From: Bifidobacteriaceae bacterium
GTDB taxonomy: Bacteria; Actinomycetota; Actinomycetes; Actinomycetales; Bifidobacteriaceae
Assembly (NCBI GenBank): GCA_022650895.1
Contig: JALCQC010000009.1
Location: 477-64,476 of the forward strand
Direction: 5' to 3'
Length of the DNA stretch: 64,000 bases
Position numbers and translations under genes: made by a program. Below are positions 3,713 through 47,886 of the stretch, one piece after another. How positions within the stretch are numbered: the stretch's first letter is position 1; each line of letters starts with the position of its first letter. A model generated the notes under the pieces. The model was given only the letters and a program-made list of their open reading frames with translations, was not told where the DNA came from and did no database searches.

Positions 3713-3866
3713 GATAAGAAACTCCTTAATGCGATTTAATACTCTGTCTTATTGATTCGGCTTCGTCGTTCGCATATAGCTCTGATATAAAGTTCGACGA
3801 ATCATGGATTCCTCGTCCAGAGACATAACAGATCAAAACCCTTGCCGAAAATCATGACATGGTTGT

Positions 3867-4697: not shown

Positions 4698-4698
4698 C

Positions 4699-5640: not shown

Positions 5641-5766
5641 GGCACAACTCCAATTATTGATTTTGAAGTGCTCGCTACCTAGGCACCCATGTGAGAGGAT
5701 ATGGGTGCCTACAGTAACGACAATTCAATGAGTTATCCGACAATTAGTGAAGTAGCGGATACTTCC

Positions 5767-7083: not shown

Positions 7084-7161
7084 AGCTCCTCCTTGAACTA
7101 TTGATTTGTTAAGTAACCTTTTTTGCACGGTGAATACTTCCGCCAGCGGCTTCAACTATAC

Positions 7162-10395: not shown

Positions 10396-11036
10396 GAGGG
10401 ACGCGTGACGTCGAGGTGAGTGTCGCAAGCGTCAATGACGCTGTGGTCGTGGGTGGCGATCAGGATGGTGGCACCGCCAGCGGCCATGGTTTTGAGAGTG
10501 TCGATGACCATGGCGGAGTTCACGTCGTCGAGAGCTCCGGTGGGTTCGTCGGCCAGAATGACGTCGGCCTGCTTGACGATGAGCCGGGCGAGGGCGACGC
10601 GTTGCTGCTCGCCGCCGGAGAGTTGGTAGATGGGGCGGTTCTCGTAGCCGGACAGTCCGACGGTGTTCAGGGCGTTTGCCACGGTCTCCTTCCGCTGTTT
10701 TCCTAGGCGTCCGGGCCCCAGCGCGATGCGTAGGTTGAAGGTGACGGTGGCGTTTTCGACGAGGGCGTAGTTCTGGAAGAGGTAGCCCAGGCGGGTCCGT
10801 CGGTAGCGCTGGCATTCGCCCTGCCGTATCCCGGTGAGGGGCTTCCCATCGAGGCTGATGGTTCCGGAGGTGGGTTTCTCCAGCAGTCCGATGCAGTTGA
10901 GGAGGGTGGTCTTGCCCGATCCGGAGGGGCCGGTGATGGCATGGAGCAGGCCGGGTTCGAAGGTAGCGGTCATGTCTGACCAGATGGTGTGGGGGCCGAA
11001 GCTTTTGGTGAGGTTAGTGACGGTGATCATGATCAT
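10392..11036 (-). CDS. ABC transporter ATP-binding protein (MacB/FtsE-like)
   Basis: Walker [10 protein letters not shown], signature [13 protein letters not shown], Walker [12 protein letters not shown]. Confidence 0.9.
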
Positions 11037-11051: not shown

Positions 11052-13181
11052 TCAGGCGACGTCGGCGCTACGCGCGGCGACGATTCTGTTGGAGCACCAC
11101 ACCACCGCACCCACCAGTACGCCCACGGCACCCACTGCCACGAGCACACCGGCGACGGGGATGATGGCATGGAGTAGGTCGATGGTGCGGCTTGCGGCAG
11201 ATCCCGAAGTGGAGAAGGCTCCCAAAATGGCCCACAGTCCCACGCTCGAGCCAGCGACGATGAGGGTTGTCAGCACCGCATCGAGAATGAAGAGACGCTT
11301 GAACATGGTCGGGTACCGCCATCCGCTGATACGAGCGGCGAAGATGAACTGTGCCCGGCGCCGCGTATAGGTCACTGCCATACCCAAGGTGGTGACCAGT
11401 GCGGCCGTCAAGCCGATGAGAAGATTGAGAACACTGGTGGTCAGGCCCAGATAGGCGTTGGAGAGCCCTGCGGCCACTTCTTGAACGGCGGGGCTAATGC
11501 TGATGACATCACGGGTGAGCTGGGGTTGGGCTTTGGCATCCTCGATGGCTTCCCGCGTGTCCATGACCAGAATACTGCCCCAGGTTGTGTACCCGTAGTA
11601 GTCGTCCGAGGACATGAAAGGTGAGTCGTTGGGCAAGATGACCATGACCGGGTCCTTGGGCATGGACTCAGGCTGGTAGAAGGGATTGAAGTCGGCGGCG
11701 TTATACGTGAAGCGGTCCTGTCCGTCGGGCGCAATGTCCACGTCGATGCGTGGCACGACGGTGGGCTTTCCATCGTCGCCGGAAGCGCGGGATTTCATGT
11801 CCGTATCGATGGCCTCAGTGACCGTTCGGGTCTCGTCCGCATACGCTTTGGGGATGATGACCGTCACTCCGGCGGCGTCCTTTGGCGCATGAACCTGCTT
11901 GCCTTCGGTATCGGTGACCTTCTGCAGGCCGAGATAGGTCTCATTGACATAGAGAACGTCGTAAGGCTGGCCGTGCAGGGTCAGGTCCTTGTTGTCGCTC
12001 GTGCCTGACCCTGGGTTGGCGACGGCTAGAAGAAGCTCGCCCCGCTTGTTCAGTGCCTTTTCCCAAGCACCAATCCGGTCGGCGCTTTTTCTCATGTCGG
12101 ACTGGCCGTCGGCGGAGAAGGTTCCCCCTCCCAGCGTGATCTTACCCAGCCGGGTTGCTCCCTCCCATTGGCCGTAGCGTTGTTGGGCCTTGGCCAGAGC
12201 CACGGCGTCGTTGAGGGCCAAGGCGGAGACGACGAAGACCATGAGCAGGGAGAAGATCCTGACCAGATAGGTCGAGACCAGCATCCCGCGCGAGGAGGAG
12301 GCACCCTTCAACGCCTGCTGCAGAGGAAAACGCCACACCACAAAAAGCGTCAGCGTGTGGACGGCTGCGGCCAGGGCCACGCCCACGACCGCGAAGAGGG
12401 CCCACAAGAGGAGCAGCACTCCGAAATGGTGCCACCGGTTGTAGAAGAAGATGGCGATTCCGGACAAGACGCCCAGAACTCCCAGCAGCTCCAAGTAGAA
12501 CCGTCCCATGGCGGAAGCGTCAAGCAGGAGAGCCCCGCCGCGTCCCCGTCCCTGCAGGCGTTGAATCGCGTAGCCACGGTCGTTGGACGCTACTCCCACC
12601 GCCACGAGGGCCACTAAGAGAACCAGCACTGTCAGCGGTGCCGCCAGAACGGAAAATCCTCCGGTACTGAGAAGGCCGAACATAACGCTGGGATTCGAAG
12701 TGCTTTGAAATCCGGCGTCGGTGAAACCGAACCCATTCAGCAGCTTGACCAGACCTAAAACGTCGGTCTCGGTGCCCGAAACGAAATACTCGCCCGATGG
12801 ACTGGTGTCGAGCGACTGCCTCTCGGAATGGATCCGGTAAGCCATCGAAGGGTTGAAACTCTGGTAGCCGTCCCCCTCCCATCGCTTAGCGAAGGAGTCC
12901 CCCGACGATGCCACCACGTACAAGTGCGACACCATCTGGGGAGTGTCAGGGTCGGCCACGCGCCGAGCCACGTCGACCTTGTGCGCGCGGCCGTAGGAGG
13001 CGATGGCCCTGTTCACCGTGGCCACCGGAACCTGCCCGGAGGAGTCGCCGTCCAGCATCATAAGACGCCAGGAGGGACCCACCGGAGCATACTTCTCATA
13101 GGAGAACAGTAGAAAGAAACTCAATAGTCCCGAGAAGATGCACACCACCACACACGAAAGACGAAGACTCTTATTCAGCAC
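11052..13181 (-). CDS. FtsX-type ABC permease with two large extracytoplasmic domains (BceB/DUF1430-like, peptide-resistance type)
   Basis: 709 aa, GTG start. An N-terminal TM is followed by a ~150-aa loop, a TM cluster, a ~230-aa loop, and a C-terminal TM cluster. Confidence 0.7.
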   Translation of the reverse strand: MLNKSLRLSCVVVCIFSGLLSFFLLFSYEKYAPVGPSWRLMMLDGDSSGQVPVATVNRAIASYGRAHKVDVARRVADPDTPQMVSHLYVVASSGDSFAKRWEGDGYQSFNPSMAYRIHSERQSLDTSPSGEYFVSGTETDVLGLVKLLNGFGFTDAGFQSTSNPSVMFGLLSTGGFSVLAAPLTVLVLLVALVAVGVASNDRGYAIQRLQGRGRGGALLLDASAMGRFYLELLGVLGVLSGIAIFFYNRWHHFGVLLLLWALFAVVGVALAAAVHTLTLFVVWRFPLQQALKGASSSRGMLVSTYLVRIFSLLMVFVVSALALNDAVALAKAQQRYGQWEGATRLGKITLGGGTFSADGQSDMRKSADRIGAWEKALNKRGELLLAVANPGSGTSDNKDLTLHGQPYDVLYVNETYLGLQKVTDTEGKQVHAPKDAAGVTVIIPKAYADETRTVTEAIDTDMKSRASGDDGKPTVVPRIDVDIAPDGQDRFTYNAADFNPFYQPESMPKDPVMVILPNDSPFMSSDDYYGYTTWGSILVMDTREAIEDAKAQPQLTRDVISISPAVQEVAAGLSNAYLGLTTSVLNLLIGLTAALVTTLGMAVTYTRRRAQFIFAARISGWRYPTMFKRLFILDAVLTTLIVAGSSVGLWAILGAFSTSGSAASRTIDLLHAIIPVAGVLVAVGAVGVLVGAVVWCSNRIVAARSADVA

Positions 13182-13456
13182 AATGCCCGACCAATCGCTG
13201 CAGTGCCAACCACTGTGGATTCTCTCAGATTTTTCATGATTAGCCTCTACTTTTATAAGCTTTTATAACGTCGTTGTTATAGTTCTTCTCTCACCACGAG
13301 TGTGCATAAGAAATACTCACTTATGACTGAGCATACGCCTTGAAATTACCGTATGCTTGGCTTCAACAAAACTTATCGACACGACGCATGGAGCGCATAT
13401 CAAAAAGTTCTGACGGAGCATTTCGTTCCGTCACCGCACCAGCGAAAGGTGGCACC

Positions 13457-14209
13457 ATGATCGACCAAGAATACCTGCGAGATTCCTTCGACGCAGTGGC
13501 GCCATCGTATGGCGCAGCGGTTGATGAGGTCGGCCTATGGCAATCCGAACACTATGTGATAGACCGTTATTTCCATACCGACGACTCCATTCTGGACATT
13601 GGATGCGGGGCCGGGCGCACTACGTTCGCCCTGTATGCGGAGGGGTATCACCGAATAATCGGCATGGATCTCTCCACAAAAATGATCGAACTGGCCACTG
13701 CGATGGGCACTCGCAAAAGCATGCCGATCACCTTCCTTGAGGGTGACTGCGAGAGAATTCCCTTCCCCGACGAGACCTATGACGTGGTCATGTTCTCTTT
13801 CAATGGGTTGATGCAGATACCGGAGCACCAGCATCGCGCGACGGCGTTGAAGGAAATGCTCCGCGTCGTGCGCCCCCAAGGGATGGTGGTGTTCACCACG
13901 CATGATCGTGACTCCGGAGGCAAGGAATTCGATGAATTCTGGAAACGGGAGCGATGTACGTGGGCGCACGGCGAGCAGGATGCGAGGCTGTTTGAGTTCG
14001 GCGATATCTTCGCCATCGACCCGAGTGCGAACGAAGAATATTTCATCCATATCCCAGATTGCGACGAAATTAAAACCCTGATATCGGCATGCGGCGGCAC
14101 CGTGATAGAGACCTTCATGCGGTCGAGCCGTTTCAACGAAACCGCTGCCGTTCAGGATTTCTCTTCCGACTGCCGTTTCTGGATTGTTGGCAAGAGCAGC
14201 GAAGCATAA
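13457..14209 (+). CDS. Class I SAM-dependent methyltransferase
   Basis: Motif I ILDIGCGAGRTT. I prefer ATG 13457 (GAAAGGTGG upstream); 13388 or 13340 are alternatives. Confidence 0.8.
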   Translation: MIDQEYLRDSFDAVAPSYGAAVDEVGLWQSEHYVIDRYFHTDDSILDIGCGAGRTTFALYAEGYHRIIGMDLSTKMIELATAMGTRKSMPITFLEGDCERIPFPDETYDVVMFSFNGLMQIPEHQHRATALKEMLRVVRPQGMVVFTTHDRDSGGKEFDEFWKRERCTWAHGEQDARLFEFGDIFAIDPSANEEYFIHIPDCDEIKTLISACGGTVIETFMRSSRFNETAAVQDFSSDCRFWIVGKSSEA

Positions 14210-14378
14210 CTTCCGGAAGAGTGCACAGCCAACGTTGCCGCGAGCGCAGAAGGATACGATCGTGAAGTGAAATTTCCCTTGTCTTTTACGGATCTCATGA
14301 CTGTGCTGCTACGCGCCTTGCTCCAGCCATGCGCTGGGTACCTGCCCGTATGCACATTACGCCCGGCAACCCTCAGAA

Positions 14379-16385
14379 TTACCAACTTGAGGTGCCACCG
14401 CCGCCGCCAAAGCCTCCGCCACCAAACGAATCCCCGCCGCCACCGTCACCAGAGCCCTCGGAGTACCAGTTGTCTCTGTGATTCGTATACATGGAACTCG
14501 TCCTGTAAAGCGACGTTGTTTTAAACGTATCGAGGAACTTCTCGCAGGTCACCCAACCAAACGCAAAAGCCATGCTGTAATAGTCAGGAAGCGGTGGCTT
14601 TTCCTTACGACCCCATTTCTTCTGAACATTTTGGCCATCCGCTCTTGCAGCCGCCGAATCAAGACGCTTCTGCAGCCTTTCTTTAGCCATTGTCAGTTGA
14701 GAATCCGGTTTCATCAACCGCACCGCCAACTCGCTAGGACTCGGCGCATTCGGCAGCTCCGCTCGCAGATCATTTAGGTAGTCATAAATCATGCGATGAA
14801 GGCGCAAGCGCTGCTGCGCGGCCAGTCCCCACATGCCGACTGTCATCATGATGGTATAAAAAATCAGCATGAGAGCCGCCACCGCGGAAAGTATGTGCAA
14901 TGGCGCCGCAAGAGGAGTGAACGCCTGCGACAGTACACGCAATATTGTGTCTTTGAAATTTTCTAGCTGCAACAGTTGAAGTGGGCTCAGCTGCTCTGGA
15001 ATCACTATCGATCCAATGATGACGGCAGGAATCCATACCCGAAGAGTGGTCAGCCAACGGAGCAGAAACCAGCAAGTATGAGTGAGAGGACTCATGAGGT
15101 ATGGGCGGACATCGTTGGGATCGGGTTCTTTTCTCAGATGTTTGAAAAAATTTCTCGCCGAGTGCAGAGAAGATTCAGTACCGCCGGTATACCAGTCTTT
15201 GTGCTGGAAGTACATGCTACTGTTCTCAAACTTCTTGATTGGCGGGATTTTAGTCTCTAAAATGCTAGTCTCGCTTGATGGCCTTGTGGTCTTTAAAAAA
15301 GTTTTTGCATCTATCACACCGAACGCAAAATCCATGCTGTAATAGTCGGGCATCGTTGCGACGAAATCAGCCGAATACCTGCCACGAGGATTGATGCGCG
15401 CACGCAAGGTAGCTTTTGCTGCCGCCGCCCTTTCGGGGTGCGTCGCCAACGTCATGGGATCGAGACTGGAATCGATAGCCACGAGGTCACGGACATACTT
15501 TCGTCTCAGATCATCCAAACGCACCTGCCGACGCAGTCGGGCCCCGAGCTGGTACAAACCATACGTTGCAGCAGCGATTATCGCGATCACGACTGCAAGG
15601 ATGTAAATATTCTGAGGCGTATTGAGCCACATCCATACCCAGCGCATCGGGTGGAAGCCCCCTGACGTCTGCCCTGCGGAAACGGCAGTCGTATCGACGA
15701 AGCCAACGCTGCCGGTCGTTATCAGGTTATCAAGCCGTTTGGTTACCAACTTCACGCCGGCGTCGTAGTTATTCTGGCGATAGTCATTTTTGACTGTTTC
15801 GTCCGTCACAAGATCGGTCATGGAGTTGGGAATTTGCCCCTCCATTCCATAGCCGACCTCTAACCGCGCCTGCCGCTGATTCTTCGCAATCAAATAGACG
15901 ACTCCGCTATCCTGGGAAGCATCGCCGACGCCCAACTGGTTCGCCATTCTCAAGGTGAAGGATTCGATGGTGTCTCCCACTGGCACGGAATCAACGGTGA
16001 TCACCATGAGCTGGGGGCGTTTGGGCAGCAGCTTATAATACTCATTCAGCTGATGAATTTCCGTCTTAGTGTCGTCGCTCAATAAGTGCGCGTTATCCGA
16101 AACGAAAATATTGTCAGGATCGATTTTCACAGTGCTATTACCCACAAATGACTGCGCCACAGAGGCAACCATCATCACTATCACCATGATCGCACCAATG
16201 ATGATGATGCCGCGGCAACCGAACCATCCACCGAATTGAAACAAGCGTCTCTTCCACGTCGGTAGCGGCATCGGCGTCGGTATCGATGATCCGCCTATTA
16301 TTCGTATTCGCGAAATCATAAGCTCAGCCCTCTTCATTGCAAGCGATACAAGCAAATGTAGCCTATGGAATGCGCGGGCGGCCAC
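14379..16385 (-). CDS. TPM-domain membrane protein with a duplicated C-terminal module and poly-Gly tail
   Basis: TPM-like block DNAHLLSDDTKTEIHQLNEY...LEVGYGMEG follows an N-terminal TM. C-terminus is GGGGDSFGGGGFGGGGGTSSW. Start uncertain (Met at 16385, 16337 or 16319). Confidence 0.7.
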   Translation of the reverse strand: MAARAFHRLHLLVSLAMKRAELMISRIRIIGGSSIPTPMPLPTWKRRLFQFGGWFGCRGIIIIGAIMVIVMMVASVAQSFVGNSTVKIDPDNIFVSDNAHLLSDDTKTEIHQLNEYYKLLPKRPQLMVITVDSVPVGDTIESFTLRMANQLGVGDASQDSGVVYLIAKNQRQARLEVGYGMEGQIPNSMTDLVTDETVKNDYRQNNYDAGVKLVTKRLDNLITTGSVGFVDTTAVSAGQTSGGFHPMRWVWMWLNTPQNIYILAVVIAIIAAATYGLYQLGARLRRQVRLDDLRRKYVRDLVAIDSSLDPMTLATHPERAAAAKATLRARINPRGRYSADFVATMPDYYSMDFAFGVIDAKTFLKTTRPSSETSILETKIPPIKKFENSSMYFQHKDWYTGGTESSLHSARNFFKHLRKEPDPNDVRPYLMSPLTHTCWFLLRWLTTLRVWIPAVIIGSIVIPEQLSPLQLLQLENFKDTILRVLSQAFTPLAAPLHILSAVAALMLIFYTIMMTVGMWGLAAQQRLRLHRMIYDYLNDLRAELPNAPSPSELAVRLMKPDSQLTMAKERLQKRLDSAAARADGQNVQKKWGRKEKPPLPDYYSMAFAFGWVTCEKFLDTFKTTSLYRTSSMYTNHRDNWYSEGSGDGGGGDSFGGGGFGGGGGTSSW

Positions 16386-16896
16386 TGTAACGTAGACGGT
16401 CCTCAGATGAATCTGCGGAACCTCCCGAGTCTTCTGAGCCTTCGGAACTTACAGAGCCTTGGGCATCACAATAATGAAGGCAATAATTCAGGGGATAAAC
16501 GCTGTTCATCGATGTTCGGAAACTGCCCAGCGCGTATTGCTCCGCTGCGGGTGCGGGAAAACTTAGGATTACGATACCTTCCTAGAAGACTCACGAGTTC
16601 ACCTTATGAATGAGGAGTAATCCTCCGAAGGTTCGAATCTCTCCTTCACCGCTATAGTTTCTCTCCCAACTTGCGGAAAAACTGACTCGGCCTTTGCAAG
16701 TCGAGACGGAGCTGAATGCCGCTGCAGGGCTCCCCGCCCAAGCTCAGTGGTCGTCCTATCACTCTGTACTTTCCGCATACTCGCCTTATATCCTCATCCG
16801 CTTTTAGATTATTGGAACTGTGCAGCCGGAGGAGGCTACGATAGAGGAGCTTTCGGAGTTCTTCTCCAATCACAGCAGCAAAGGAGCTGGGATTAC

Positions 16897-17211
16897 ATGA
16901 AATGTTCATTTTGCAGGTTTAAGAACGCAAAAGGAACTCGCTTCTGTCAGAGATGCGGAAGAGCGCTGAGGGGCCGTCGGTTTCTTTCATCCGCCCAAGG
17001 AGGTGTCATCGCCTCGATGGCCAATCCAGCTCTTGGCCTGGCAACGTTTGTCGGAATGCAGATAGATCAGACGTCGAAAAGTACGATGAGACGACAAAGA
17101 TTGGCGAAAGTATCTCCTCTAGAGGGTGGGCGGTGGTATTGCCCCGACTGTGGCTACCTAAACCGGAAATTTGATATTTATTGCTCGGGTTGCGGTAGAG
17201 AATTCGTCTAA
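16897..17211 (+). CDS. Double zinc-ribbon protein (104 aa)
   Basis: ATG 16897 lies 10 nt after AAGGAG. Motifs CSFC..x11..CQRC at the N-terminus and CPDC..x11..CSGC at the C-terminus. The longer track ORF (16747) has no RBS. Confidence 0.6.
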   Translation: MKCSFCRFKNAKGTRFCQRCGRALRGRRFLSSAQGGVIASMANPALGLATFVGMQIDQTSKSTMRRQRLAKVSPLEGGRWYCPDCGYLNRKFDIYCSGCGREFV

Positions 17212-17239
17212 AATTCACCCCTGCTTGCGCGGGGAAAGC
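17212..17239 (-). repeat. Fossil CRISPR repeat (aattcacccctgcttgcgcggggaaagc)
   Basis: Roughly three quarters of positions match the array repeat, in the same orientation. It starts 1 nt after the zinc-ribbon gene stop. Confidence 0.7.
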
Positions 17240-17357
17240 GTGGCGACAGGAACGACCAGAATCCAGCTATCCCGACCAGAATCAAGGATTTGGGAGGCCA
17301 TACTTTTCAACCAAAGAAAGATTGTGAACCGCATAAGAAACAGATATCTTGAAGGTA

Positions 17358-17507
17358 AGTAGTCGGTGACCTCCCCCGTTACCCTGAAAACCTTTCTGCA
17401 TGAGGCAGGTATTGGGGTGCAGGCCGACGCTGGCAGTGAGTGATAGTAAAACTAGAAGTGCAGGCGCTGTCCGCCCGGTGTTGAACAGGATTCGCACCGG
17501 GCATTTT
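17358..17507 (+). repeat. IR-L: 150-bp left copy of an imperfect inverted repeat; possible ~150-nt sRNA gene
   Basis: Aligns with the reverse complement of 18389-18538. Block identities: 5' 40 nt with 2 mismatches, central 20 nt identical, 3' 46 nt identical. TTGTGA-17 nt-TATCTT ends 7 nt before 17358. Hairpin GCCCGGTG(14 nt)CACCGGGC + ATTTT lies at 17472-17507. Confidence 0.8.
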
Positions 17508-17739
17508 CATGCCTTGGATCGAACCGCTCGCACAGGGAATACGCCACTGAGCCTCACGAACTCACCCACGATTCACGCACCCGAATCACTCGCAGGGAAG
17601 CTGGAAATCTCGTCACATTGCACGGTAGAGGCTAAAATCGAATCGACCTCATGCGAATCAACGCTGATTCCGGGGGAAGAACGCAAAAATGAAAAAAATC
17701 AATTATCCCTCGGGTAGATCTCCAGTTGAGTGTCTATGC

Positions 17740-17828
17740 CGAGTTCGCCCCGGTTACGCTGGGAAAATCAGGAGAGCGAGAACCTTACTATCGAACGCAC
17801 AGATTCATCCCGCTCGTACGAGGAAGAC
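17740..17828 (-). repeat. Two fossil CRISPR repeats about 60 bp apart (17740-17769, 17800-17828)
   Basis: cgagttcgccccggttacgctgggaaaatc and cagattcatcccgctcgtacgaggaagac. Same orientation as the array and array-like spacing. Confidence 0.55.
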
Positions 17829-17871
17829 TGAGCTACTTTACTGAAGCGGCGTCTTATGTCTTCCTAGTTTT

Positions 17872-18120
17872 TCATCTGGCGAGATCGGGATAGGCTTGCT
17901 CAATGAGATCCCTGTTCTCAGGGTCGACAACGGCCAAAGCTTTGAGAATCAAATCTAGGGGTATCTCGTAATCCTGTTGCGGTGCTGCCGTGACGATGGA
18001 GAGTATAGGACCCTCCGGCTCCCCGGCCTTTATCGCTTGATTCAGAACCCATTTGGTTTCCGAATCGAGATATGGGGAAGCAATATCATAGAGCGCCACA
18101 GCAAGCTGCTGTTCATCCAT
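17872..18120 (-). CDS. 82-aa acidic hypothetical protein
   Basis: Internal ATG (complement 18118-18120) lies 6 nt after GAAGGAG. Sequence MDEQQLAVALYDIASPYLDSETKW...DPENRDLIEQAYPDLAR. The longer 154-aa track ORF lacks an RBS and is Cys/Ser-rich. Confidence 0.5.
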   Translation of the reverse strand: MDEQQLAVALYDIASPYLDSETKWVLNQAIKAGEPEGPILSIVTAAPQQDYEIPLDLILKALAVVDPENRDLIEQAYPDLAR

Positions 18121-18388
18121 CGCTGCTCCTTCCCCGGAAGATTGATGGGACGACGCGCAGTGTCTATCCAGTGGCGGTTCTTCCCGATAATCATTTACAC
18201 TTCTACACTCGCTCTGACCTGCTGCCACTTTACGTCGGTACTCGATACAGTTCGTCTCGGATTGTGTAGAGAAACTTTCTCCCGTCGTCTCGATGGACAT
18301 GAGACCATGGCACTTACTCGATCCACAGAGGCTCATCGAGCGAAAAACTGAGAAGATCGAAATTGATTATGCACAGTATGAAGAGTAC

Positions 18389-18538
18389 AAAATGCCCGGT
18401 GCGAATCCTGTTCAACACCGGGCGGACAGCGCCTACGCTCCTAGAATCCACTATTCATCACTGCCAGCGTCGGCCTGCCCCCTTTACCTGCCCCGCGTAG
18501 AAGGGTTTTCAGGGTAACGGGGTAGGTCACCGACTACT
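18389..18538 (-). repeat. IR-R: right copy of the 150-bp inverted repeat; possible convergent sRNA paralogue
   Basis: See IR-L. On the - strand TATTCT (complement 18546-18551) ends 7 nt before the repeat, the same spacing as IR-L. The hairpin and T-run point inward and end at 18389. Confidence 0.8.
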
Positions 18539-18566
18539 CATCTTTAGAATACTCGTATGATCCTTT

Positions 18567-18596
18567 CGGGTTCACCCCCGCTTACGCGGGAAGGAC
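18567..18596 (-). repeat. Fossil CRISPR repeat (cgggttcacccccgcttacgcgggaaggac)
   Basis: Close match to the array repeat with one inserted G. It overlaps the -35 position of the IR-R promoter candidate. Confidence 0.75.
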
Positions 18597-18857
18597 CTCA
18601 CACCCACGACTTACATCAGAAGATGCACAGCACTCACAGCAGATTATGAAAGTTCATGGAAGCCCAGGTCCTTTGTCTGTCACTAATTCTGATGACAGAA
18701 CCCGCCTTGCTTGATATGCGAATATTGTTCACATTGCCTTGTCCGTTTTATAGACGAAGAGAAACAGGATGATAGGTGTAAAATAGCAACCGACACAATG
18801 GCGTTGTCTTCCGATTTCAATAACAAAAATAAGTTTCCAATTGAGTAGGGATCAATT

Positions 18858-19202
18858 ATGATCAAGACACAGAGACGAGCGGCTTATTTCCCATGGGGCG
18901 AGATGCTTTTCACCGGCGGACTCATTGGCATGTGGACGGAATTCAACCAAGCCGATTTCTATCTTCCTGCTCTGATATTCTCGATTCTGTTGGGTCTTGT
19001 TGGACTATTCCTCGCGATGGTACGAACTATTCAACTAAGGCACCGATTTCCCAAACTATGGATTGAACCTCTCTGGTTCTGTTCACTTATCCTTGTGGGG
19101 AGTCTTTTAGAACACCAAGCTTTCTGGGCGTATGTTGCAGTGATTCTTGCCGCCACCGGATACGCTTTGAGAATTCACTTCCTTATGCAAGAGGCTCACT
19201 AA
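18858..19202 (+). CDS. Small membrane protein (114 aa, 3-4 TM), unknown function
   Basis: Hydrophobic helices LFTGGLIGMW, LPALIFSILLGLVGLFLAMV, LWFCSLILVGSLL and AYVAVILAATGYAL. Preceded by a visibly AT-rich region and GAGTAGGGA. Confidence 0.55.
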   Translation: MIKTQRRAAYFPWGEMLFTGGLIGMWTEFNQADFYLPALIFSILLGLVGLFLAMVRTIQLRHRFPKLWIEPLWFCSLILVGSLLEHQAFWAYVAVILAATGYALRIHFLMQEAH

Positions 19203-19305
19203 CCTCCGAGCTCACCTTTCAGATTCTAGCTAGGTATAGTTAGCTCAACCTTGAGATTCCAAGCACGGTTTATCGCGCCTGCCACTAATTCCCGATTGTG
19301 CACAG

Positions 19306-19455
19306 CCTTGAGGATGCATTTGCGCGGGGAGGACAGCGTACCTACACTTTTATTCGTAGAAACCACAGGTTTCACCCCGCTTGCGCGGGGAAACTCGGAC
19401 ACCGTCGTCCTGGATACTGCCGACAGTGTTCCACCCCCGCTTACTCGGGGAAGAG
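19306..19455 (-). repeat. Fossil mini-array: three degenerate repeats starting at 19306, 19367 and 19427 (61/60-bp phase)
   Basis: The first unit keeps only the 3' half (catttgcgcggggaggac). The other two are aggtttcaccccgcttgcgcggggaaac and tgttccacccccgcttactcggggaagag. The two intervening 32-nt segments are spacer-sized. Confidence 0.8.
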
Positions 19456-19468
19456 AGAGAAGATAGAA

Positions 19469-19759
19469 ATGGATGAACTTCTTCGTGTGAAAGCGAACCT
19501 CAAGCGCGGGGCAGAATACGTGGGTGGACATTTAACGGTGAGGACGGATGGACTTTACTTTCACCCGCATCAGTTTAATATCCAGATCGCTGATCTGTTC
19601 ATCAACAAGGCCGAGATTCGCGAAATCAAGAAGATCAGGACGCTGGGTCTAGTGCCTAATGGTCTGCAGCTTGCGCTGCTGAATGGCGGAGTCGTGACAC
19701 TAGTTGTGTCAAGCCGCGCCAAGTTGATGCAGACGATTGAAGACGCATATCAGCTCTGA
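19469..19759 (+). CDS. 96-aa PH/GRAM-like small protein
   Basis: ATG 19469 is preceded by a purine-rich GAAGAGAGAGAAG. GGHLTVRTDGLYFHP...GLQLALLNGGVVTLVV fits a bacterial PH/GRAM-like pattern (from memory). The track ORF start at 19298 reads through the fossil repeats and I reject it. Confidence 0.5.
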   Translation: MDELLRVKANLKRGAEYVGGHLTVRTDGLYFHPHQFNIQIADLFINKAEIREIKKIRTLGLVPNGLQLALLNGGVVTLVVSSRAKLMQTIEDAYQL

Positions 19760-19798
19760 GAACGGTTACAGAATAAGTGTTTGGCTTCTAATGCATCG

Positions 19799-19993
19799 CT
19801 ATATTTCAAGTACAGCTTTCAAACGAATCTTAGGGTTCGATATTCTTTTGTGTTTTTTAGCATAGTGATTCAGAAGTTGAGCACGACTTTCATTGAATGC
19901 TCAGGTCGTCATGGTGATGATATGAAGCCGATCGGCGATGATCCTTGCGTTGGAAAACCGTTCTAACGATGTCTTGATAATAACTATTAAGGT
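19799..19993 (-). pseudogene. ISL3-family transposase relic (~65 codons, in-frame stop)
   Basis: - strand translation: TLIVIIKTSLERFSNARIIADRLHIITMTT*AFNESRAQLLNHYAKKHKRISNPKIRLKAVLEI*. FxNAxI(I/V)xDRFH is the conserved ISL3 DDE-region motif (from memory). Confidence 0.4.
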
Positions 19994-20035
19994 TTAAAGT
20001 CACGGCTTTGTGTTTGTGGCAATAGTGGTTGAGCC

Positions 20036-20185
20036 AGGTTCACCCCACTGACGCGGAAAGACTCGCCCCCACGTCGGCTCTGAATGTGAGGGAAAGGCTT
20101 TACCCCTGCTCGTGCGAGGAAACAGTTGCGCACGCGCCAATCGTCCTCCGTACGCTAGCTCACCCCTACTTGTGCGGGAAAAACG
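20036..20185 (-). repeat. Three degenerate trailer repeats (starts 20036, 20096, 20157) still in ~61-bp phase
   Basis: aggttcaccccactgacgcggaaagac, ggctttacccctgctcgtgcgaggaaac and agctcacccctacttgtgcgggaaaaac. Confidence 0.8.
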
Positions 20186-20351
20186 TTTACGAAACCGGGT
20201 TACGACCGGTTCCCTTGATCTCTTTTTGGTAACCCACCAAATCTGATACTGTGAATACAGGTCAGAGATCCCACGCGACCAGCCATAGGACTGGAACATC
20301 AGTCGGGGGGTTATCTCTGGCCCTTACTTTTTAGAGAAATCTCTCTGAACT

Positions 20352-22882
20352 CGGTCCACCCCCGCTTGCGTGGGGAAGACACGATGTTGAGAAGCTCATT
20401 CCAACCGCTGTTCGGTTCACCCCCGCTTGCGCGGGGAAGACGCCTACGCGTGGTCGATGCCTCAGTACGCGTTCGGTTCACCCCCGCTTGCGCGGGGAAG
20501 ACTCTATCTCCCATCCCCAGTATCTGCCTCCCGCCGGTTCACCCCCGCTTGCGCGGGGAAGACCTAGACAACCTGGGCACCGCCTTCGCGCACCCCGGTT
20601 CACCCCCGCTTGCGCGGGGAAGACACGACGGGCGAGTTCGCCCGTCTCTGCCGGTACGGTTCACCCCCCGCTTGCGCGGGGAAGACCTTTCATAAGTGCT
20701 CATCGTTCATTCCTTTCACGGTTCACCCCCGCTTGCGCGGGGAAGACATGACCTGTGTGATGGCGATGCATTTCTCGTTCGGTTCACCCCCGCTTGCGCG
20801 GGGAAGACAAACCGTTAGTGGAATTAGTCTGAAATATAGTCGGTTCACCCCCGCTTGCGCGGGGAAGACTGAGTCAATCAGGATAATCTTACCTAGCAGT
20901 AAGGTTCACCCCCGCTTGCGCGGGGAAGACCCGACTTTGCCGAGGAACTGCGTGACCTGCGGCGGTTCACCCCCGCTTGCGCGGGGAAGACAACGATCGC
21001 GGTGCCACTCTCGGCTATGGGCCTGGTTCACCCCCACTTGCGCGGGGAAGACCCGCAGATTGCGGCTATCACGATTGGATTGCGCGGTTCACCCCCGCTT
21101 GCGCGGGGAAGACCTTCACCGTGCCCGATCTTGCCCGCGCCGCCGCGGTTCACCCCCGCTTGCGCGGGGAAGGCAAATGAGTCTACGCGAATACGATACC
21201 TATGCTCGGTTCACCCCCGCTTGCGCGGGGAAGGCGGCTATCCCCTGTCATATTTCGTGCCCCCGCAAGGTTCACCCCCGCTTGCGCGGGGAAGGCACGC
21301 CACCAAGGGTGGGCACTTCGCGGATACCCGGTTCACCCCCGCTTGCGCGGGGAAGGCCCGGTATCGCGTGCGTGACCTCTCATCGTCCGCGGTTCACCCC
21401 CGCTTGCGCGGGGAAGGCGGACTTCACCACGTAGACGCGTTGACTCCATTCGGTTCACCCCCGTCTGCGCGGGGAAGGCCTCACTATCGCGGGACGAGAT
21501 TGAGTCACTGGCGGTTCACCCCCGTCTGCGCGGGGAAGGCGGAGCTGACGGCTCCCGTCAGGGTTTTTGACGCGGTTCACCCCCGTCTGCGCGGGGAAGG
21601 CTCTACGAGCTGTTTCCAGGATTCGGAAATGTCCGGTTCACCCCCGTCTGCGCGGGGAAGGCTGACCGATGTGCGAGAAGACCGACGCTCACGCCGGTTC
21701 ACCCCCGTCTGCGCGGGGAAGGCTTCCACCGCAGCGGATGATTCGGGTTGTCGAATGGTTCACCCCCGTCTGCGCGGGGAAGGCCCGCAGGAGGGTCGGA
21801 AATAATTTACTGGGCTTGGTTCACCCCCGTCTGCGCGGGGAAGGCCAGACCGGCCGGCCAGTGTGCCAGTTCGGTCGAGGTTCACCCCCGTCTGCGCGGG
21901 GAAGGCACCACACCCGGCCCGAAGCTTGTCCATGGTTTGGGTTCACCCCCGTCTGCGCGGGGAAGGCTGCCCTGAGTATCGCGGCGCGTTTCTAATCCAG
22001 GGTTCACCCCCGTCTGCGCGGGGAAGGCTCCGACGGCCTCCGCGCTGCAGGTCAGGAGGCGGGTTCACCCCCGTCTGCGCGGGGAAGGCTCCGTGAGTTG
22101 AGGGTCGAGAGCGGCATTCCGGGGTTCACCCCCGTCTGCGCGGGGAAGGCAGAACCGTGTCGTCGAACAATTGGAGCGTGAAAGGTTCACCCCCGTCTGC
22201 GCGGGGAAGGCGGGGAGCGTGAGGACACGTGGCTTGATACCACGGGTTCACCCCCGTCTGCGCGGGGAAGGCGCCCGGTGCGGGGTTTCTCTTTACCAAA
22301 CCCGAGGTTCACCCCCGTCTGCGCGGGGAAGGCGTAGGGATGGGATGATGTGGGTCCCTAACCTGCGGTTCACCCCCGTCTGCGCGGGGAAGGCCTTCGA
22401 AGCAGCTCACTGGCAATGCTGGCACGTGGTTCACCCCCGTCTGCGCGGGGAAGGCAAGCCGTTGAGCGCGGCGATTGTACGCCAGTTGGGTTCACCCCCG
22501 TCTGCGCGGGGAAGGCCCACGAAAGCCGGCCTGACCGGCGGCAGTGCGCGGTTCACCCCCGTCTGCGCGGGGAAGGCTCCTCCCACGAAGATGATTGCTT
22601 TCAACCACCAGGTTCACCCCCGTCTGCGCGGGGAAGGCAATGGTTTAGTGCCCGGCGACCTCTGGTTCCAGGGTTCACCCCCGTCTGCGCGGGGAAGGCG
22701 TTCGATGCCGTTTCCGTTGTCGCCGCGTATGGGGTTCACCCCCGTCTGCGCGGGGAAGGCCCACGCTCCGAACGCTCACAGGCAGTACGCATGGGTTCAC
22801 CCCCGTCTGCGCGGGGAAGGCTACGGGCCGTATCAGGGTGGTGACGAGCTGGAGGGTTCACCCCCGTCTGCGCGGGGAAGGC
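20352..22882 (-). CRISPR. Type I-E-like CRISPR array: 42 repeats, 41 spacers, 61-bp period
   Basis: The reverse-complement repeat GTCTTCCCCGCGCAAGCGGGGGTGAACCG matches the I-E architecture (compare E. coli GAGTTCCCCGCGCCAGCGGGGATAAACCG). Repeat starts run 20352, 20413 ... 22854. Spacers are 32 nt (33 if the variable 29th repeat base is counted with the spacer). One repeat at 20657 carries an extra C. The degenerate terminal repeat is at the low-coordinate end. Confidence 0.97.
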
Positions 22883-23100
22883 AGTGGCACTTTATGCGGA
22901 AAACCGCACCTGCGTCCACCCAAAAAATTGGATTCGTGCAGTGCTATCTGTCATAGGACCTTTCAAACACGTCACCCTCCACCATCCACATCTACGATAC
23001 CGTGAAACTTCGTCCAAAAGGGCAAGCGGGCGGGCCAACCGGGCCACATCATCGATACGAGCAAGGTTCGCCGGCCCCGCCCGTTCGGACATGGGTATTA
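22883..23100 (-). promoter_or_regulatory. Presumed CRISPR leader
   Basis: It abuts the perfectly conserved, newest-type repeat, is AT-richer than its surroundings, and has no credible ORF. I could not pin down a promoter. Confidence 0.35.
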
Positions 23101-23849
23101 TCCGCGTTTACTACGTGATTTTCACACGAATGCTCACGCTGTACTCCACGACGGACGTCAAGCGTTCGGTTGTGCGGCAAGATTCAGAATGCTGCCCGTG
23201 AAACGGGCTTGGACATGTGGGCAGAATGCCGAATCCGAGGCGTTCTCCACAGATGTTGCCGCATAACCGCGCGTTTGACGACACGAGATGCCAATTCCAG
23301 CAAATTTCACCCTGCCAGGTTGGCGTGGAACAACGAATGTGATGCCTGGGAGGGTCGCCAGTCAGGATCGCGACGAGTTGCCACACGGGCGAACTGCCTA
23401 AGCTCCAAAACGGCGAACCCGTCTGCCATCAAACTGACGCACGAGCCACCCACTAACCGACGCCAACGGTCAGGTGCAGCAGCGGTGCCCACCACCACAA
23501 AGTGCACACCGAACCCAACCACACCAAGCCGACGAGGCACCAAGAAGATACCAGGCAACCGCGCAGCCCACCATCAGCCGCCCACCACCAACCACATACC
23601 ATCAGTCACACGCCACCGGCAAAGATATCAATTTCATAACAAATCAGCATCGCGATTGTTATATATGGTGATGCCCGAAAACAGCACAAGATCAACGCTC
23701 CTAGAGCTTGGCACAGCGGTCCCACCGTCCCGCAGCAGCGTCGACCACCACCCCCGATCGGCAAGTGGCCACCGCCGAGCGCCGTATTCTTCAAATGCAA
23801 TATTGGTTCCTCGACGACGAGGAGCAGGCATTCAAAGAAGGTAGTCTTC

Positions 23850-25841
23850 ATGGAAAAAATGAAAACCGGCAGACTCAGCGTCTGCCTTTCTGCGGCGTTG
23901 GTGCTCGCCTCCCTTGCCGCGCCCACGGTGGCCTCCGCTGCACCTACTACGCCCACTGATTCCTCGACGATCAGCGCGGACGTGATGAAACAGATCTACG
24001 ACGAGGTCAAAACCCCTTACGATTATGGCATCGTCCTTCCAAAGGGAGATCAGCCGGCTGATTTCGACAGCGAACTCACCGATCAGATGAACGTCTTCAA
24101 GATCCCGGGAGACAACGATTACGTGTACACCACGTACGTCGGTAAGGACATCAACCGCAAGACCGACGGAACCGATAACACCGGCTACAGCACCGGTCTG
24201 GCGCGCAGCAAGGACATGGTCACGTGGGAGAAGCTCGGCAAGATCCTCAGCCCCGACAAGGATTTCTACAGTGCATCCACCGCGGGCTACCTGGTGAAGA
24301 ACCACACGTGGGGTGATCTGCCGACGCCTCATCTGACGGCAGACGGCAAATACGCCCTCACGGTTCTGTCCACCAACGAGCACGGCTATGAGCAGGGCGA
24401 CAAGCGCGGCGGAGTGGCCTTCTCCCCCAGCAACTCCTTCTTCAACGAAGATGGCAGTGTCGCCGAGTTCACCATGTATGACAAGCCCATTCTCGATGGC
24501 AGCGCCTCCTACGAGAGCGGCACCATCTGGGCCGTCAAGACCATCTGGGACGAAGAGAACCAGCGTTATGTGGCGTTCTACAACGCCTCGCACGGTCCGG
24601 AAGTCATGAACCAAGCGTATTCGACGGACCTCATCCACTGGACCCGCGAAGCCAACAATCCCGTGCTGCAGACGGTGACCCAGCCCAACGGCGAGCAGTG
24701 GGGACAGCTGTACAACGGCGACGCGGACGTCGTCAAGATCGGCGACTACTGGGTGATGTTCTACTTCACTGACACCCCCGTCAAGATCGGCAACAAGATC
24801 AAGCCCAACAACGTGATCGATTCCTTCGCCGTCTCCAAGGACATGGTGCACTGGACGAAGAGCGACTACAAGCTGACCGCCAAGAACTCCACCTTCGCCA
24901 AGTCCTACGCCCACAAGCCGGCCGTCGTGAAGAAGAACGGCGTGGTCTATCACTATTACAACGCCGTCAGCAACCAGGACCGCAACATGGCGCTGTCGAC
25001 CTCCGTCGATCTTTCTCCCATCAAGGAAGCCAAGCACGTCCTTGAGAACAGCAATGACGCGCTCCTGTCCAACCTCCTCACCAAGGCGCAGAAGGAACTC
25101 ATCAAGGATGGCGGCTCCCTCAAGGAAGTCACCGCGGCACTGTCCGCGATCCGCATGCACCTCCATCCCGAAGCTGATGCAAGCCTGCGTTCCGCAACGC
25201 TCACTTACGAGAAGGATGGATCGACGCAGCAGCTCGGCCTCAAGGCCTCCGGCACCACCTACTCGGCAACCCTGCCAAGCAGCGCCTCCAAGGTGCGCCT
25301 CTATGCGGCCCCGGTCGCCTCGAGCGCAGCCGTCACCACTGCTGACGGTACGGAAATCACCAACGCGGGTATCGGGCTTTCCTTCGACGCCGCTAAGGGA
25401 ATCTCCCCGCTGAAACTGACGGTGACGTCCGCCGACGGCACCACGAAGAAGGGCTACACCGTCAAGGTCGCCAGCGATGCCAAGAACGCGGGAACCAGCA
25501 ACGGAAACTCTGCGGCAGGTCCGGGAGCAAACACGAATGGCTCCCCCTCCGCCACCCCGGCCAAGGACTCGAACAACGACTCCAGCACCGCAGCGGCCAC
25601 CGCAGACAACGGCAAGAAGAAGGCAGCAGCGCAATCCTCCGCGGCAGCCAAGAAAGCCGCAGCCGCTAAGGCAGCGAAGGCAGCATCAAAGGAAGCCGGG
25701 GCCACTGAGGCCACAGCTGGCGAGAACGCCTCCAGCCTCGCACACACGGGCAGCTCGGTGGTCTTCGTGCTGATTGCCGCAGCGATCCTCGTGGCAGGTG
25801 GCGCAGCGCTCCTCCTCAAGGCACGCAAGCAGCGGAACTAA
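23850..25841 (+). CDS. Cell-wall-anchored (LAxTG) beta-propeller glycoside-hydrolase-like protein (GH43/GH32-clan-like) with a cadherin-like beta-sandwich and Ala/Lys-rich stalk
   Basis: Signal peptide, repeated blade motifs (SKDMVTWEKLG, STDLIHWTRE, SKDMVHWTKS) and C-terminal LAHTG + TM + KARKQRN. The GH family is uncertain. Confidence 0.7.
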   Translation: MEKMKTGRLSVCLSAALVLASLAAPTVASAAPTTPTDSSTISADVMKQIYDEVKTPYDYGIVLPKGDQPADFDSELTDQMNVFKIPGDNDYVYTTYVGKDINRKTDGTDNTGYSTGLARSKDMVTWEKLGKILSPDKDFYSASTAGYLVKNHTWGDLPTPHLTADGKYALTVLSTNEHGYEQGDKRGGVAFSPSNSFFNEDGSVAEFTMYDKPILDGSASYESGTIWAVKTIWDEENQRYVAFYNASHGPEVMNQAYSTDLIHWTREANNPVLQTVTQPNGEQWGQLYNGDADVVKIGDYWVMFYFTDTPVKIGNKIKPNNVIDSFAVSKDMVHWTKSDYKLTAKNSTFAKSYAHKPAVVKKNGVVYHYYNAVSNQDRNMALSTSVDLSPIKEAKHVLENSNDALLSNLLTKAQKELIKDGGSLKEVTAALSAIRMHLHPEADASLRSATLTYEKDGSTQQLGLKASGTTYSATLPSSASKVRLYAAPVASSAAVTTADGTEITNAGIGLSFDAAKGISPLKLTVTSADGTTKKGYTVKVASDAKNAGTSNGNSAAGPGANTNGSPSATPAKDSNNDSSTAAATADNGKKKAAAQSSAAAKKAAAAKAAKAASKEAGATEATAGENASSLAHTGSSVVFVLIAAAILVAGGAALLLKARKQRN

Positions 25842-47642: not shown

Positions 47643-47886
47643 GTTGTTTACGCACACAAAGCGCGCCATATCATGGTAGATTTCAAACAGATTTATTGTA
47701 TCGGAAGCTCAGAAAGAGAATTCGTATGATCAGATGTTTTCCTCTCTGAGCTTCCCATATCTGTTGAAAATACTGAGTTTTTAATGAACACACAAACGCT
47801 GATCCACAAAAGGTTAAGAGATTCTTCCTGCACGCTTCGGGAGAAAAGAGGAAGGGAAAAGAACAACAACATTGGAAAATTTTTAA

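Follow-up and report, generated by a model that had tools for sequence, protein, structure and literature searches.

Eroded, orphan and insertion-sequence-interrupted CRISPR arrays display decay of the leader-distal repeats, stranded units that are no longer extended, transposase relics inside the array and the loss of units through recombination between repeats. All of these features recur at the locus described here, which lies within a 64,000-nucleotide stretch of DNA (hereafter the window), and trailer-end decay is likewise visible in the array of B. samirii. Compared with eroded and orphan arrays, the trail of repeat units in the window is unusually long, its ten units forming five groups over 3 kb. 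Four intact genes that lie within it are under purifying selection, and its arrangement as a whole is stable across two lineages. In staphylococci, recombination between phage genomes and CRISPR loci was reportedly described by Varble et al. in 2019. The window resembles that situation in that repeats at the end of an array have phage DNA directly between them, a pattern seen in at least two repeat lineages whose breakpoints differ. It differs in that no spacer matching the captured phage region was found, in that only around 160 nt survives, and in that the mechanism is one that we infer.

Two further groups of isolated repeats are also relevant. CRISPR-derived regulatory mini-arrays are made up of degenerate repeats around a spacer-like sequence (Cheng et al. 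2022, PMC9458426; Shmakov et al. 2023, bioRxiv 10.1101/2023.03.03.530964), and in type I-E systems such mini-arrays have been described between cas3 and cas8 (Shmakov et al. 2023). Like CreA of CreTA, CreR and crRNA-like mini-arrays, the window has two or three degenerate repeats flanking spacer-sized sequence outside a main array; unlike them, its units are neither in nor beside a cas operon, yielded no seed-matched partial target and show no sequence constraint. Viruses harbor solitary repeat units, mini-arrays and RNA anti-CRISPRs, or Racr (PMC10651486 and PMC6858448). The likeness lies in isolated repeat-like units beside small genes of foreign composition, whereas the units in the window are chromosomal, sit beside their own array in its orientation and phase, are decaying, and belong to a trail that has no mobile-element backbone.

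In a Bifidobacterium-like genome, the trail is probably what is left of the oldest end of a type I-E CRISPR array, now dead and cut up by foreign DNA. Once-ordinary repeat-spacer units have been severed from the live array, and from one another, by a phage fragment of around 160 nt, an ISL3 relic, a cassette with inverted-repeat arms and by small accessory genes. Deletions have also shortened the region, at least one of these having arisen between adjacent repeats. The stranded units have since evolved without constraint, mainly through G/C to A/T changes but also with many indels and with independent loss of their hairpins, whereas purifying selection has retained the inserted genes, which are ordinary accessory genes. 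The order and the mechanism of the insertions are our reconstruction, the candidate mechanisms being transposition and recombination between array and phage DNA; insertion itself is evidenced by the ISL3 transposase fragment and by a phage-contig match at 20195-20332. Of the two origins offered in the original prediction, an old trailer invaded by insertions therefore fits better than the merging of several arrays. The trail provides a well-resolved natural record of CRISPR array ageing, in which phage and transposon DNA strands old units, recombination trims them, neutral decay follows and inserted genes are domesticated. It is a clear yet essentially ordinary example of array erosion, and of modest interest as such.

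The live array and the stranded units

The live array has the repeat unit GGTTCACCCCCGYYTGCGCGGGGAAGRC and closes with a degenerate terminal repeat at 20353. A search of GTDB representatives with the exact 28-nt repeat gave zero matches, as did a search of metagenome contigs with the repeat core; B. samirii was retrieved with a looser core, and was found to have the same repeat core as the window together with a homologous leader. The orientation of the live array follows from B. samirii, in which the leader side of the array carries cas2, cas1, cas6e, cas5, cas7 and cse2. The 64-kb window itself contains neither cas genes nor cas relics, and no self-targeting by the 41 live spacers was detected. 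The right flank gave no comparison of synteny, since among GTDB species representatives no relative exceeds 60% identity to its GH32-like and epimerase proteins.

Table 1. Features of the trail, the phage-derived segment and the live array (positions in the window).
Feature	Position	Strand	Remarks
Double zinc-ribbon (DZR) gene, 104 aa	16897..17211	+	Pfam DZR E=1.2e-8
Fossil unit E	17212..17239	+	24/28 identical to consensus; hairpin kept
Cassette left arm	17345..17507		Inverted repeat; terminator-like hairpin then ATTTT, pointing inward
Two weak fossil units	17741-17769, 17802-17828	+	Scores 12.5, 13.5; 32-nt spacer; within inverted-repeat cassette
82-aa gene	17872..18120	-	Inside inverted-repeat cassette
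Cassette right arm	18389..18551		82-95% complementary to left arm
Fossil unit C	18569..18596	+	26/28 identical to consensus; hairpin kept
Small membrane-protein gene, 114 aa	18858..19202	+	Hydrophobic segments
Fossil cluster B	19307-19335 (half unit), 19368-19394, 19428-19455	+	32-33-nt spacers; orthologous units in L111
GRAM / PH-like domain gene, 96 aa	19469..19759	+	AF2 model, Foldseek, relatives' Pfam GRAM
ISL3 transposase relic	19844..19966	-	~41 codons, in-frame stop; Pfam DDE_Tnp_ISL3
Fossil cluster A	20037-20062, 20096-20123, 20157-20184	+	33-nt spacers; most decayed units
Phage-type tRNA-Tyr(GTA) relic, first 43 nt	20195..20237	-	L214 match
Imperfect hairpin, 63 nt, phage origin	20260..20322		Conserved
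Phage VG15-like head-protein gene relic, 3' end	20323..20352	-	Partly by-eye alignment
Live array, type I-E-like	20353..22882	- (transcribed strand)	42 repeats, 61-nt period, 33-nt spacers
Live-array leader	22883..22960	-	Homologous to B. samirii leader (z = 7)

At least ten further units in array orientation had been predicted beyond the terminal repeat, and ten were found between 17212 and 20184, in five groups, every one of them on the + (array) strand and within 1-2 nt of its predicted coordinate. An ungapped position-weight matrix built from the live array, with which the whole window was scored on both strands, gave 33.0 bits at 17213, 31.1 at 18570, 19.8 at 19369, 23.6 at 19429 and 20.2 at 20158, against a best match of 13.5 bits elsewhere in the window on either strand. 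In a gapped semi-global scan (maximum score 28) the units scored 20 (17212), 12.5 (17741), 13.5 (17802), 22 (18569), 21.5 (19368), 19 (19426), 15 (20037), 14 (20096) and 14 (20157). Nine + strand matches thus reach a score of at least 12, far above the 0.03 expected from 200 dinucleotide-preserving shuffles of 16800-20340, a comparison that had been proposed as a check; the sole - strand match of at least 12 is the palindromic shadow of the unit at 19368. The tenth unit, at 19307, consists of a 3' half only, lies exactly 61 nt before 19368 and is present in the relative described below. Three clusters keep the array phase, as had also been claimed, with spacings of 61 nt (17741/17802), 61 and 60 nt (19307/19368/19428) and 59 and 61 nt (20037/20096/20157) around spacers of 32-33 nt. 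The units are confirmed as genuine remnants of array units.

Decay has proceeded unevenly along the trail. The Cas6e-type hairpin is kept in the units at 17212, 18569, 19368 and 19428 (-8.9 to -12.6 kcal/mol), and is lost or weak in those at 17802, 20037, 20096 and 20157. Substitutions away from the consensus comprise 28 GC>AT against 5 AT>GC changes, to which 24 indel positions are added. Units farther from the live array are not more decayed: erosion is greatest in the nearest cluster, and those at 17212 and 18569, at the far end, are among the best kept, so that the history of the trail is not a simple time series.

The same trail is carried by a relative, L111, at around 88% nucleotide identity (about 12% diverged), and the synteny comparison that had been suggested reveals a shared trail with lineage-specific insertions and deletions. 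Positions 18693-20352 are orthologous in L111 at 87.5% identity, with units, fossil spacers, genes and ISL3 relic all included, and the trail therefore predates the split of the two lineages. Insertion and deletion differences separate them: the inverted-repeat cassette is absent from L111, the cassette and a TPM gene are each found in one lineage and missing from the other, and the interval from the zinc-ribbon gene to the membrane-protein gene is entirely different in L111, yet holds two phased fossil units. Between 20037 and 20096, L111 lacks exactly one unit plus spacer and has two units fused, as recombination between repeats would produce. Divergence between the window and L111 is 23.5% for the units, 20% for the fossil spacers and 17% for other non-coding DNA, with dS values of 0.12-0.32 for the neighbouring genes, and orthologous units have lost hairpin pairing differently in the two lineages. 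Diverging as they do at or above the neutral rate, the units are, on this sequence comparison, evidently fossils and not regulators. These two genomes are the only ones to carry the long trail, too few to order or date the insertions.

Phage DNA at the array end

A scrap of phage DNA, 168 nt long, separates the live array from the last fossil cluster. Positions 20195-20332 are 84% identical over 140 nt, and collinear, to positions 4154-4291 of an IMG/VR phage contig, L214 (BLAST), which encodes tail tube, GP7 capsid, scaffold and VG15-like proteins as well as a tRNA-Tyr. The tRNA-Tyr is intact in L214, at 4114-4196; no tRNA was called in the window. The hairpin at 20260-20322 has 23 pairs, with all cells paired and with compensatory double changes at 6 pairs, and occurs in one copy per locus (model R1). 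It has no Rfam match, and an Rfam scan of 13000-23500 at E <= 1 returned a single sub-threshold chance match, to Chlorobi-1. Within the head-protein relic, 10 of the 30 nt (20323-20332) fall inside the 84% BLAST match and the rest, at around 70% identity, was aligned by eye; in gut-type contigs a longer relic, when translated, gives the C-terminus of L214's VG15-like protein.

These gut-type contigs represent around 80 human-gut metagenome loci in which the same phage core lies between three stranded units and an array whose I-E repeat is different. Window and gut type agree in having a 168-nt segment between the stranded units and the array, but the breakpoints of the phage core differ by 50 nt on each side, and the equal lengths are for this reason treated as coincidence. 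A larger piece of the phage region abuts an array end in another locus (L175), and where gut strains have lost the large I-E array, all that remains is a set of three units, the segment and a single unit. A repeat-like unit able to drive recombination was sought in L214 and is absent from it. In one gut contig, L145, the stranded side carries another nine units, of a different repeat variant, and the stranded units could accordingly come from a second, separate array and not from the live array's trailer.

It is also possible, if doubtful, that the phage fragment is not debris but, with the stranded three-unit cluster, part of a functional trailer module. Bifidobacterium I-E arrays may have repeatedly captured, or long kept, the same piece of a phage late operon, which may comprise the end of a head-protein gene, the conserved hairpin and the tRNA-Tyr, placed between repeats in the orientation of array transcription. 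Read-through of the pre-crRNA may then yield a long non-canonical antisense or guide RNA against this phage family, for which the piece is retained; alternatively, the benefit may lie in a pre-crRNA 3' end defined by the hairpin. Between lineages with unalignable flanks, the hairpin core keeps 92% identity, which could reflect selection in the host rather than passive retention. If selection were shown, the fragment, found in two repeat lineages, would point to a new kind of array-associated element. A role for the 168-nt segment as a second leader was rejected, its similarity to the true leader being not significant (z = 0.1 to 2.0, with the window leader against the B. samirii leader as positive control, z = 7), and short motifs common to segment and leader that had been seen by eye were dropped.

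Genes and mobile DNA between the units

Three of the genes predicted between the units, encoding the zinc-ribbon, membrane and GRAM/PH proteins, are, judged from their substitution pattern, evidently real genes: in frame, their dN/dS values against L111 are 0.15-0.29, as opposed to 0.6-2.3 out of frame. The stop codon of the zinc-ribbon gene (17209-17211) abuts unit E, as had been noted. The zinc-ribbon protein is 90% identical to its L111 copy (dN/dS 0.15) and has full-length relatives at 31-32% identity in four IMG/VR contigs; its one cellular relative from outside the lineage (P0006), at 40% identity, sits in a non-CRISPR locus, an ordinary chromosomal setting without flanking repeats. The membrane protein is also 90% identical in L111 (dN/dS 0.29), and family searches with it gave zero assignments. 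For the GRAM protein (dN/dS 0.21), the AF2 model has seven strands and one helix at a pLDDT of 91.6, and Foldseek gives TM-scores of 0.72-0.85 (query-normalised) to GRAM/PH domains; Pfam GRAM (PF02893) is matched by 32 of its 40 relatives, although the protein itself falls short of E 0.01. Its closest relatives lie in ordinary chromosomal settings without flanking repeats. A conserved zinc-ribbon, membrane and GRAM module was considered and rejected, the neighbour of the closest GRAM relative being unrelated to the membrane protein. The 82-aa protein has a sole relative, P0004 (88% aa identity, with 287 nt shared), in an unrelated chromosomal locus that has neither cassette arms nor flanking repeats, and the core of the cassette arms has zero copies in GTDB representatives. 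For three of these four genes a mobile-element origin could not be demonstrated.

The ISL3 relic had also been predicted and finds weak confirmation: it matches DDE_Tnp_ISL3 at E=1.7e-4, with 21.9 bits against a gathering score of 23. The match covers profile positions 71-111 of 240, a short internal fragment being all that survives, and is conserved in L111. The claim that the region is AT-rich stands in so far as the trail has 50% GC against 57-67% in its immediate flanks; however, low GC sets in as early as about 13000, the window has further accessory genes that are equally AT-rich, and AT-richness is not specific to the trail.

The original prediction had seen the embedded genes as candidates for mobile-element cargo, anti-defence functions included; an anti-defence role finds no support in the searches described here. 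We consider it unlikely that genes and flanking units arrived together on mobile elements that carry solitary repeat units or mini-arrays and integrate by recombination with the host array, with the genes or the units serving anti-CRISPR or other anti-defence roles. The GC3 of the four small genes, at 0.49-0.59 against 0.74-0.82 in the immediate flanks, would suit such cargo, as would the ISL3 relic, phage fragment and cassette in the trail, the restriction of the cassette and the TPM gene to one lineage, and the intact hairpins of the units at 17212, 18569 and 19368. The zinc-ribbon protein, with its distant viral homologues, is the exception among proteins that otherwise gave no phage or plasmid matches, no NCBIfam or PADLOC matches and no informative PHROG matches (two marginal ones for the zinc-ribbon protein and one for the membrane protein); the GRAM, membrane and 82-aa proteins have no viral relatives, and closest relatives lie in ordinary chromosomal neighbourhoods. 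Moreover, there is no integrase, the trail has no phage or plasmid DNA match, the phage contig with the captured region lacks a repeat-like unit, and the genes are under purifying selection in both lineages beside an array that still grew.

The two- and three-repeat clusters are very unlikely to be CRISPR-derived regulatory mini-arrays, that is, sources of CreA, CreR or crRNA-like RNAs that guide Cascade to repress, without cleavage, the promoters of the neighbouring cargo genes or of cas genes. Their layout of degenerate repeats flanking 32-33-nt spacer-like sequence does resemble the described one, the GRAM start codon lies 13 nt after the end of cluster B, and a second lineage also has a three-unit cluster beside the conserved core. 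The two fossil spacers of cluster B differ from L111 at only 9% of positions, but this figure comes from 6 differences over 65 nt and does not lie significantly under the neutral level, and the divergence of the units themselves, their lost hairpins and the deletion of one unit in L111 argue against this reading, as does the lack of cas genes in the window, given where I-E mini-arrays have been described. No seed-anchored match of the fossil spacers of at least 11 nt lies near the trail; the one seed match of 12 nt, which has two free positions, lies within a live-array spacer, at 22776. The gut-type spacers, with the oversized 'spacer' included, gave zero seed matches of at least 12 nt in 80 loci. 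Cre-like targeting was rejected on these seed scans of fossil and gut-type spacers. Least probable by far, to the point of being negligible, is that the units are chance or low-complexity GC-rich palindromes, for although the weakest (12.5-14) overlap the top of the rest-of-window background (maximum 14.5), their single-strand excess over shuffled sequence, their phase and spacer lengths and their orthologs in L111 have already refuted it.

An eroded and invaded trailer of this kind serves as a caution that a stray repeat is not always a regulatory mini-array, nor a gene between repeats always anti-defence cargo. It matters for annotation as well: array finders will go no further than 20353, and false ORFs will be called across the fossils by gene callers.

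The live array and the repeat remnants beyond it

The live CRISPR array contains 42 repeats of 28 nt, separated by spacers of 33 nt to give a 61-nt period, and passes through three successive repeat variants along its length. When reverse-complemented the repeat takes the type I-E form, which places the leader from 22883 onwards and the old end of the array at 20353. Bifidobacterium samirii 2033B bears this out: cas2, cas1, cas6e, cas5, cas7 and cse2 are found there beyond the array on the leader side, and the leader of the window is homologous to that of B. samirii (z = 7 against shuffles). B. samirii 2033B is the one GTDB species representative found to combine the same repeat core with identifiable I-E cas genes alongside; other matches to the core, such as a Sumerlaeia MAG and Azospirillum soli, were left out. 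Together with the gene content, these matches suggest that the window comes from a Bifidobacterium-like organism. No cas genes or cas relics are found in the 64-kb window, and none behind the leader at 22883-23850. The array is orphan or remote within the window.

The repeat-like units that had been reported beyond the terminal repeat at 20353 are real, as position-weight matrix, gapped scan, shuffles and phase all agree. With the ungapped matrix, five trail sites reach 20-33 bits, and nothing elsewhere on either strand exceeds 13.5. Nine units scoring 12.5-22 are recovered by the gapped scan between 17212 and 20184; each of them lies on the array strand, and dinucleotide-preserving shuffles of the region average 0.03 such hits. 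A tenth unit, at 19307, retains its 3' half only; it lies in exact phase with its neighbours and is also present in L111, a contig from a related lineage. The repeat-spacer phase described in the original prediction is borne out in all three clusters, with a spacing of 59-61 nt and spacers of 32-33 nt, and so are the inverted-repeat cassette and the zinc-ribbon gene whose stop codon directly adjoins the 17212 unit. The proposed AT-richness holds with two qualifications: the trail is AT-richer than its immediate flanks, but the low-GC zone already starts near 13000, and the window has many other accessory genes whose AT content is just as high.

The fossil units resemble both the oldest variant of the live array and the B. 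samirii repeat. The large array of B. samirii (L120 1-480) also has decayed units past its terminal repeats, at about 146, 188, 300 and 360, so the window is not alone in having a short fossil trail.

Features of the fossil trail, the live array and their surroundings, in window coordinates
Feature	Coordinates	Content
SAM methyltransferase gene	13340-14209	beside the trail
TPM-domain gene region	14196-16550	2.3 kb
Zinc-ribbon (DZR) gene	16897-17211
Single fossil unit	17212
Inverted-repeat cassette	17345-18551	82-aa gene
Cassette arms	17345-17507 and 18389-18551	about 163 nt, 82-95% complementary
Single fossil unit	18569
Cluster B	19307-19455	fossil units
GRAM gene	19469-19759
Cluster A	20037-20184	fossil units
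168-nt segment	20185-20352	left to right: first 43 nt of phage tRNA-Tyr; intergenic stretch; hairpin; last few codons of head-protein gene
Hairpin	20260-20322	63 nt, imperfect
Live array	20353-22882	42 repeats
Repeat variant GCTT..AAGAC		13 oldest repeats of live array, three single-base variants counted in
Repeat variant GCTT..AAGGC		5 repeats of live array
Repeat variant GTCT..AAGGC		24 newest repeats of live array
Match to phage-hairpin covariance model	47695-47778	gap between two genes; weak, 20.9 bits, E=0.013

The evidence from sequence comparison indicates that the fossil units are not functional. Between the window and L111 the units diverge by 23.5%, the fossil spacers by 20% and other non-coding DNA by 17%, with dS of 0.12-0.32 in neighbouring genes. 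Pairing has been lost differently in orthologous units of the two, and changes away from the consensus comprise 28 from G/C to A/T against 5 in the reverse direction, together with many indels. The fossil spacers have no seed-anchored matches of at least 11 nt near the trail, and their single 12-nt seed-anchored match, with two free positions, is located inside the live-array spacer at 22776. The regulatory I-E mini-arrays that have been described sit between cas3 and cas8, with the promoter of cas8 as their target (bioRxiv 10.1101/2023.03.03.530964), whereas the trail has no cas genes nearby in the 64-kb window.

A phage-derived segment at the array end

The segment between cluster A and the live array is a scrap of phage DNA. 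Window positions 20195-20332 are 84% identical over 140 nt to the IMG/VR phage contig L214 (match at 4154-4291, within the region 4114-4291 that takes in its tRNA-Tyr), which carries, in order, tail tube, GP7 capsid, scaffold, tRNA-Tyr, hairpin and VG15-like head protein. A 24-nt core of the segment recurs in about 80 contigs from human-gut metagenomes whose I-E repeat is a different one, GGATCATCCCCGCATGTGCGGGGAACAC; its place is again between three stranded units and an array, here of 1 to 111 repeats. In this gut type the head-protein relic still translates to the C-terminus of the L214 VG15-like protein. A further contig, L175, harbors a larger degraded phage piece (capsid, scaffold, tRNA, hairpin and VG15 fragments) adjoining the end of an I-E array. 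The contigs without flanking repeats, L214 among them, have an intact tRNA-Tyr beside the hairpin. Because the window lineage and the gut type do not share breakpoints, the equal length of 168 nt is taken as coincidence. The fragment would have entered either once, long ago, or several times.

In interpretation, incoming phage DNA, since trimmed down, separated cluster A from the live array and, by extension, the other gaps in the trail are what is left of further insertions, with a transposase still visible in one of them. The phage segment and the transposase relic both support the first alternative of the original prediction, that of an old trailer repeatedly invaded by insertions. There is a hint that the stranded units may instead descend from a second, separate array: the gut-type contig L145 has nine additional units, of another repeat variant (GGATCATCCCCGCGGGTGCGGGGCTCAC) and each with its own spacer, on that side of the phage segment where the stranded units lie, from 696 to 208 nt upstream of the conserved core (strand turned so that the element reads +). 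The trail is largely explained as an eroded type I-E array end with inserted, domesticated DNA, and is a further example of the already known erosion of array ends.

Of all these elements, only the phage hairpin fragment that recurs at trailer ends might deserve experimental follow-up. The hairpin constitutes the common core; all 23 of its 23 pairs are formed in every sequence, with compensatory double changes at six, and there is one copy per locus. It is absent from B. samirii and has no match in Rfam. Host selection may be what maintains the hairpin: its G-U pairs and T-rich tail favor the + strand, but the genes of the phage all lie on the opposite one. The covariance-model match elsewhere in the window is probably just another terminator-like hairpin.

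In strains of the type represented by contig L157, the I-E locus is reduced to three units, the segment and one unit. A Cas4-Cas1 fusion and an array with a period of about 72 nt are found near this remnant (L157 original coordinates 1576-7100), in what looks like a type I-G-like system alongside the I-E remnants.

Age and remodelling of the trail

Among 5.8 billion proteins the GRAM-like protein has a single relative, which is encoded on L111, a 40-kb Logan contig. From window position 8257 up to the point where the array of L111 starts, the two sequences are collinear, with 87-94% nucleotide identity. The membrane gene, cluster B, GRAM gene, ISL3 relic, cluster A, 168-nt segment and terminal-repeat position are all orthologous between the two, so the trail is older than the split of the two lineages. 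The live array of L111 differs from that of the window in both repeat variant and spacers.

The trail has been remodelled after the split, in every case by whole repeats and inserts. Cluster A of L111 lacks one unit and spacer, leaving a clean fusion of two units as inter-repeat recombination would give. The interval from the zinc-ribbon to the membrane gene (unit 17212, cassette, unit 18569) is replaced in L111 by 280 unrelated nucleotides, which contain two fossil units 61 nt apart. L111 also lacks the TPM gene region, whose junctions in the window have a short direct repeat, AGGAT(T)ACGAT, reflecting either insertion or microhomology-mediated deletion. A very weak repeat-like 3' half, CCGCTGCGGGTGCGGGAAAAC, is seen at the right junction (16542).

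Genes within the trail

The three genes that can be compared with L111 are real, with in-frame dN/dS values of 0.15 (zinc-ribbon), 0.29 (membrane) and 0.21 (GRAM) and out-of-frame values of 0.6-2.3. The GRAM assignment is based on 308 remote relatives, with Pfam GRAM matches in 32 of 40 that were aligned, and is supported by a confident model (pLDDT 91.6) and by Foldseek matches to the PH-GRAM domains of myotubularin and Lam6. An N-terminal zinc ribbon or DZR domain is present in 7 of the 40 relatives, so the zinc-ribbon and GRAM genes of the trail may be functionally linked; no conserved neighbourhood supports the link. For the 82-aa gene of the cassette a single relative is known, with 88% identity, and it lies elsewhere, at an unrelated locus that lacks the arms; the ISL3 relic is a 41-codon fragment just below the Pfam threshold. 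Each cassette arm has an inward-pointing hairpin and T-run, which would halt transcription entering from either direction. At its outer end the left arm may include the 5' end of unit 18569 as an inverted and heavily decayed copy.

The suggestion that these genes are anti-defence cargo finds no support. The four small proteins have no relevant family in PADLOC or NCBIfam and only marginal PHROG hits, and the trail has no match in phage and plasmid collections. Only the zinc-ribbon protein has viral relatives (31-32% identity), and the cellular proteins closest to the GRAM and zinc-ribbon proteins are encoded in ordinary neighbourhoods. The methyltransferase beside the trail matches the PADLOC model mad2 (mads_2; E=7.7e-17), possibly only through a shared methyltransferase fold. 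Finally, the viral contig L215 (IMGVR_UViG_2867279638_000001) contains, at 10723-10800, a pair of I-E-like repeat units (GGATCACCCCCGCACGCGCGGGGACCCC and GGTTCACCCCCGCGTGCGCGGGGAAGGT, 49 nt apart), which may represent a virus-borne mini-array.
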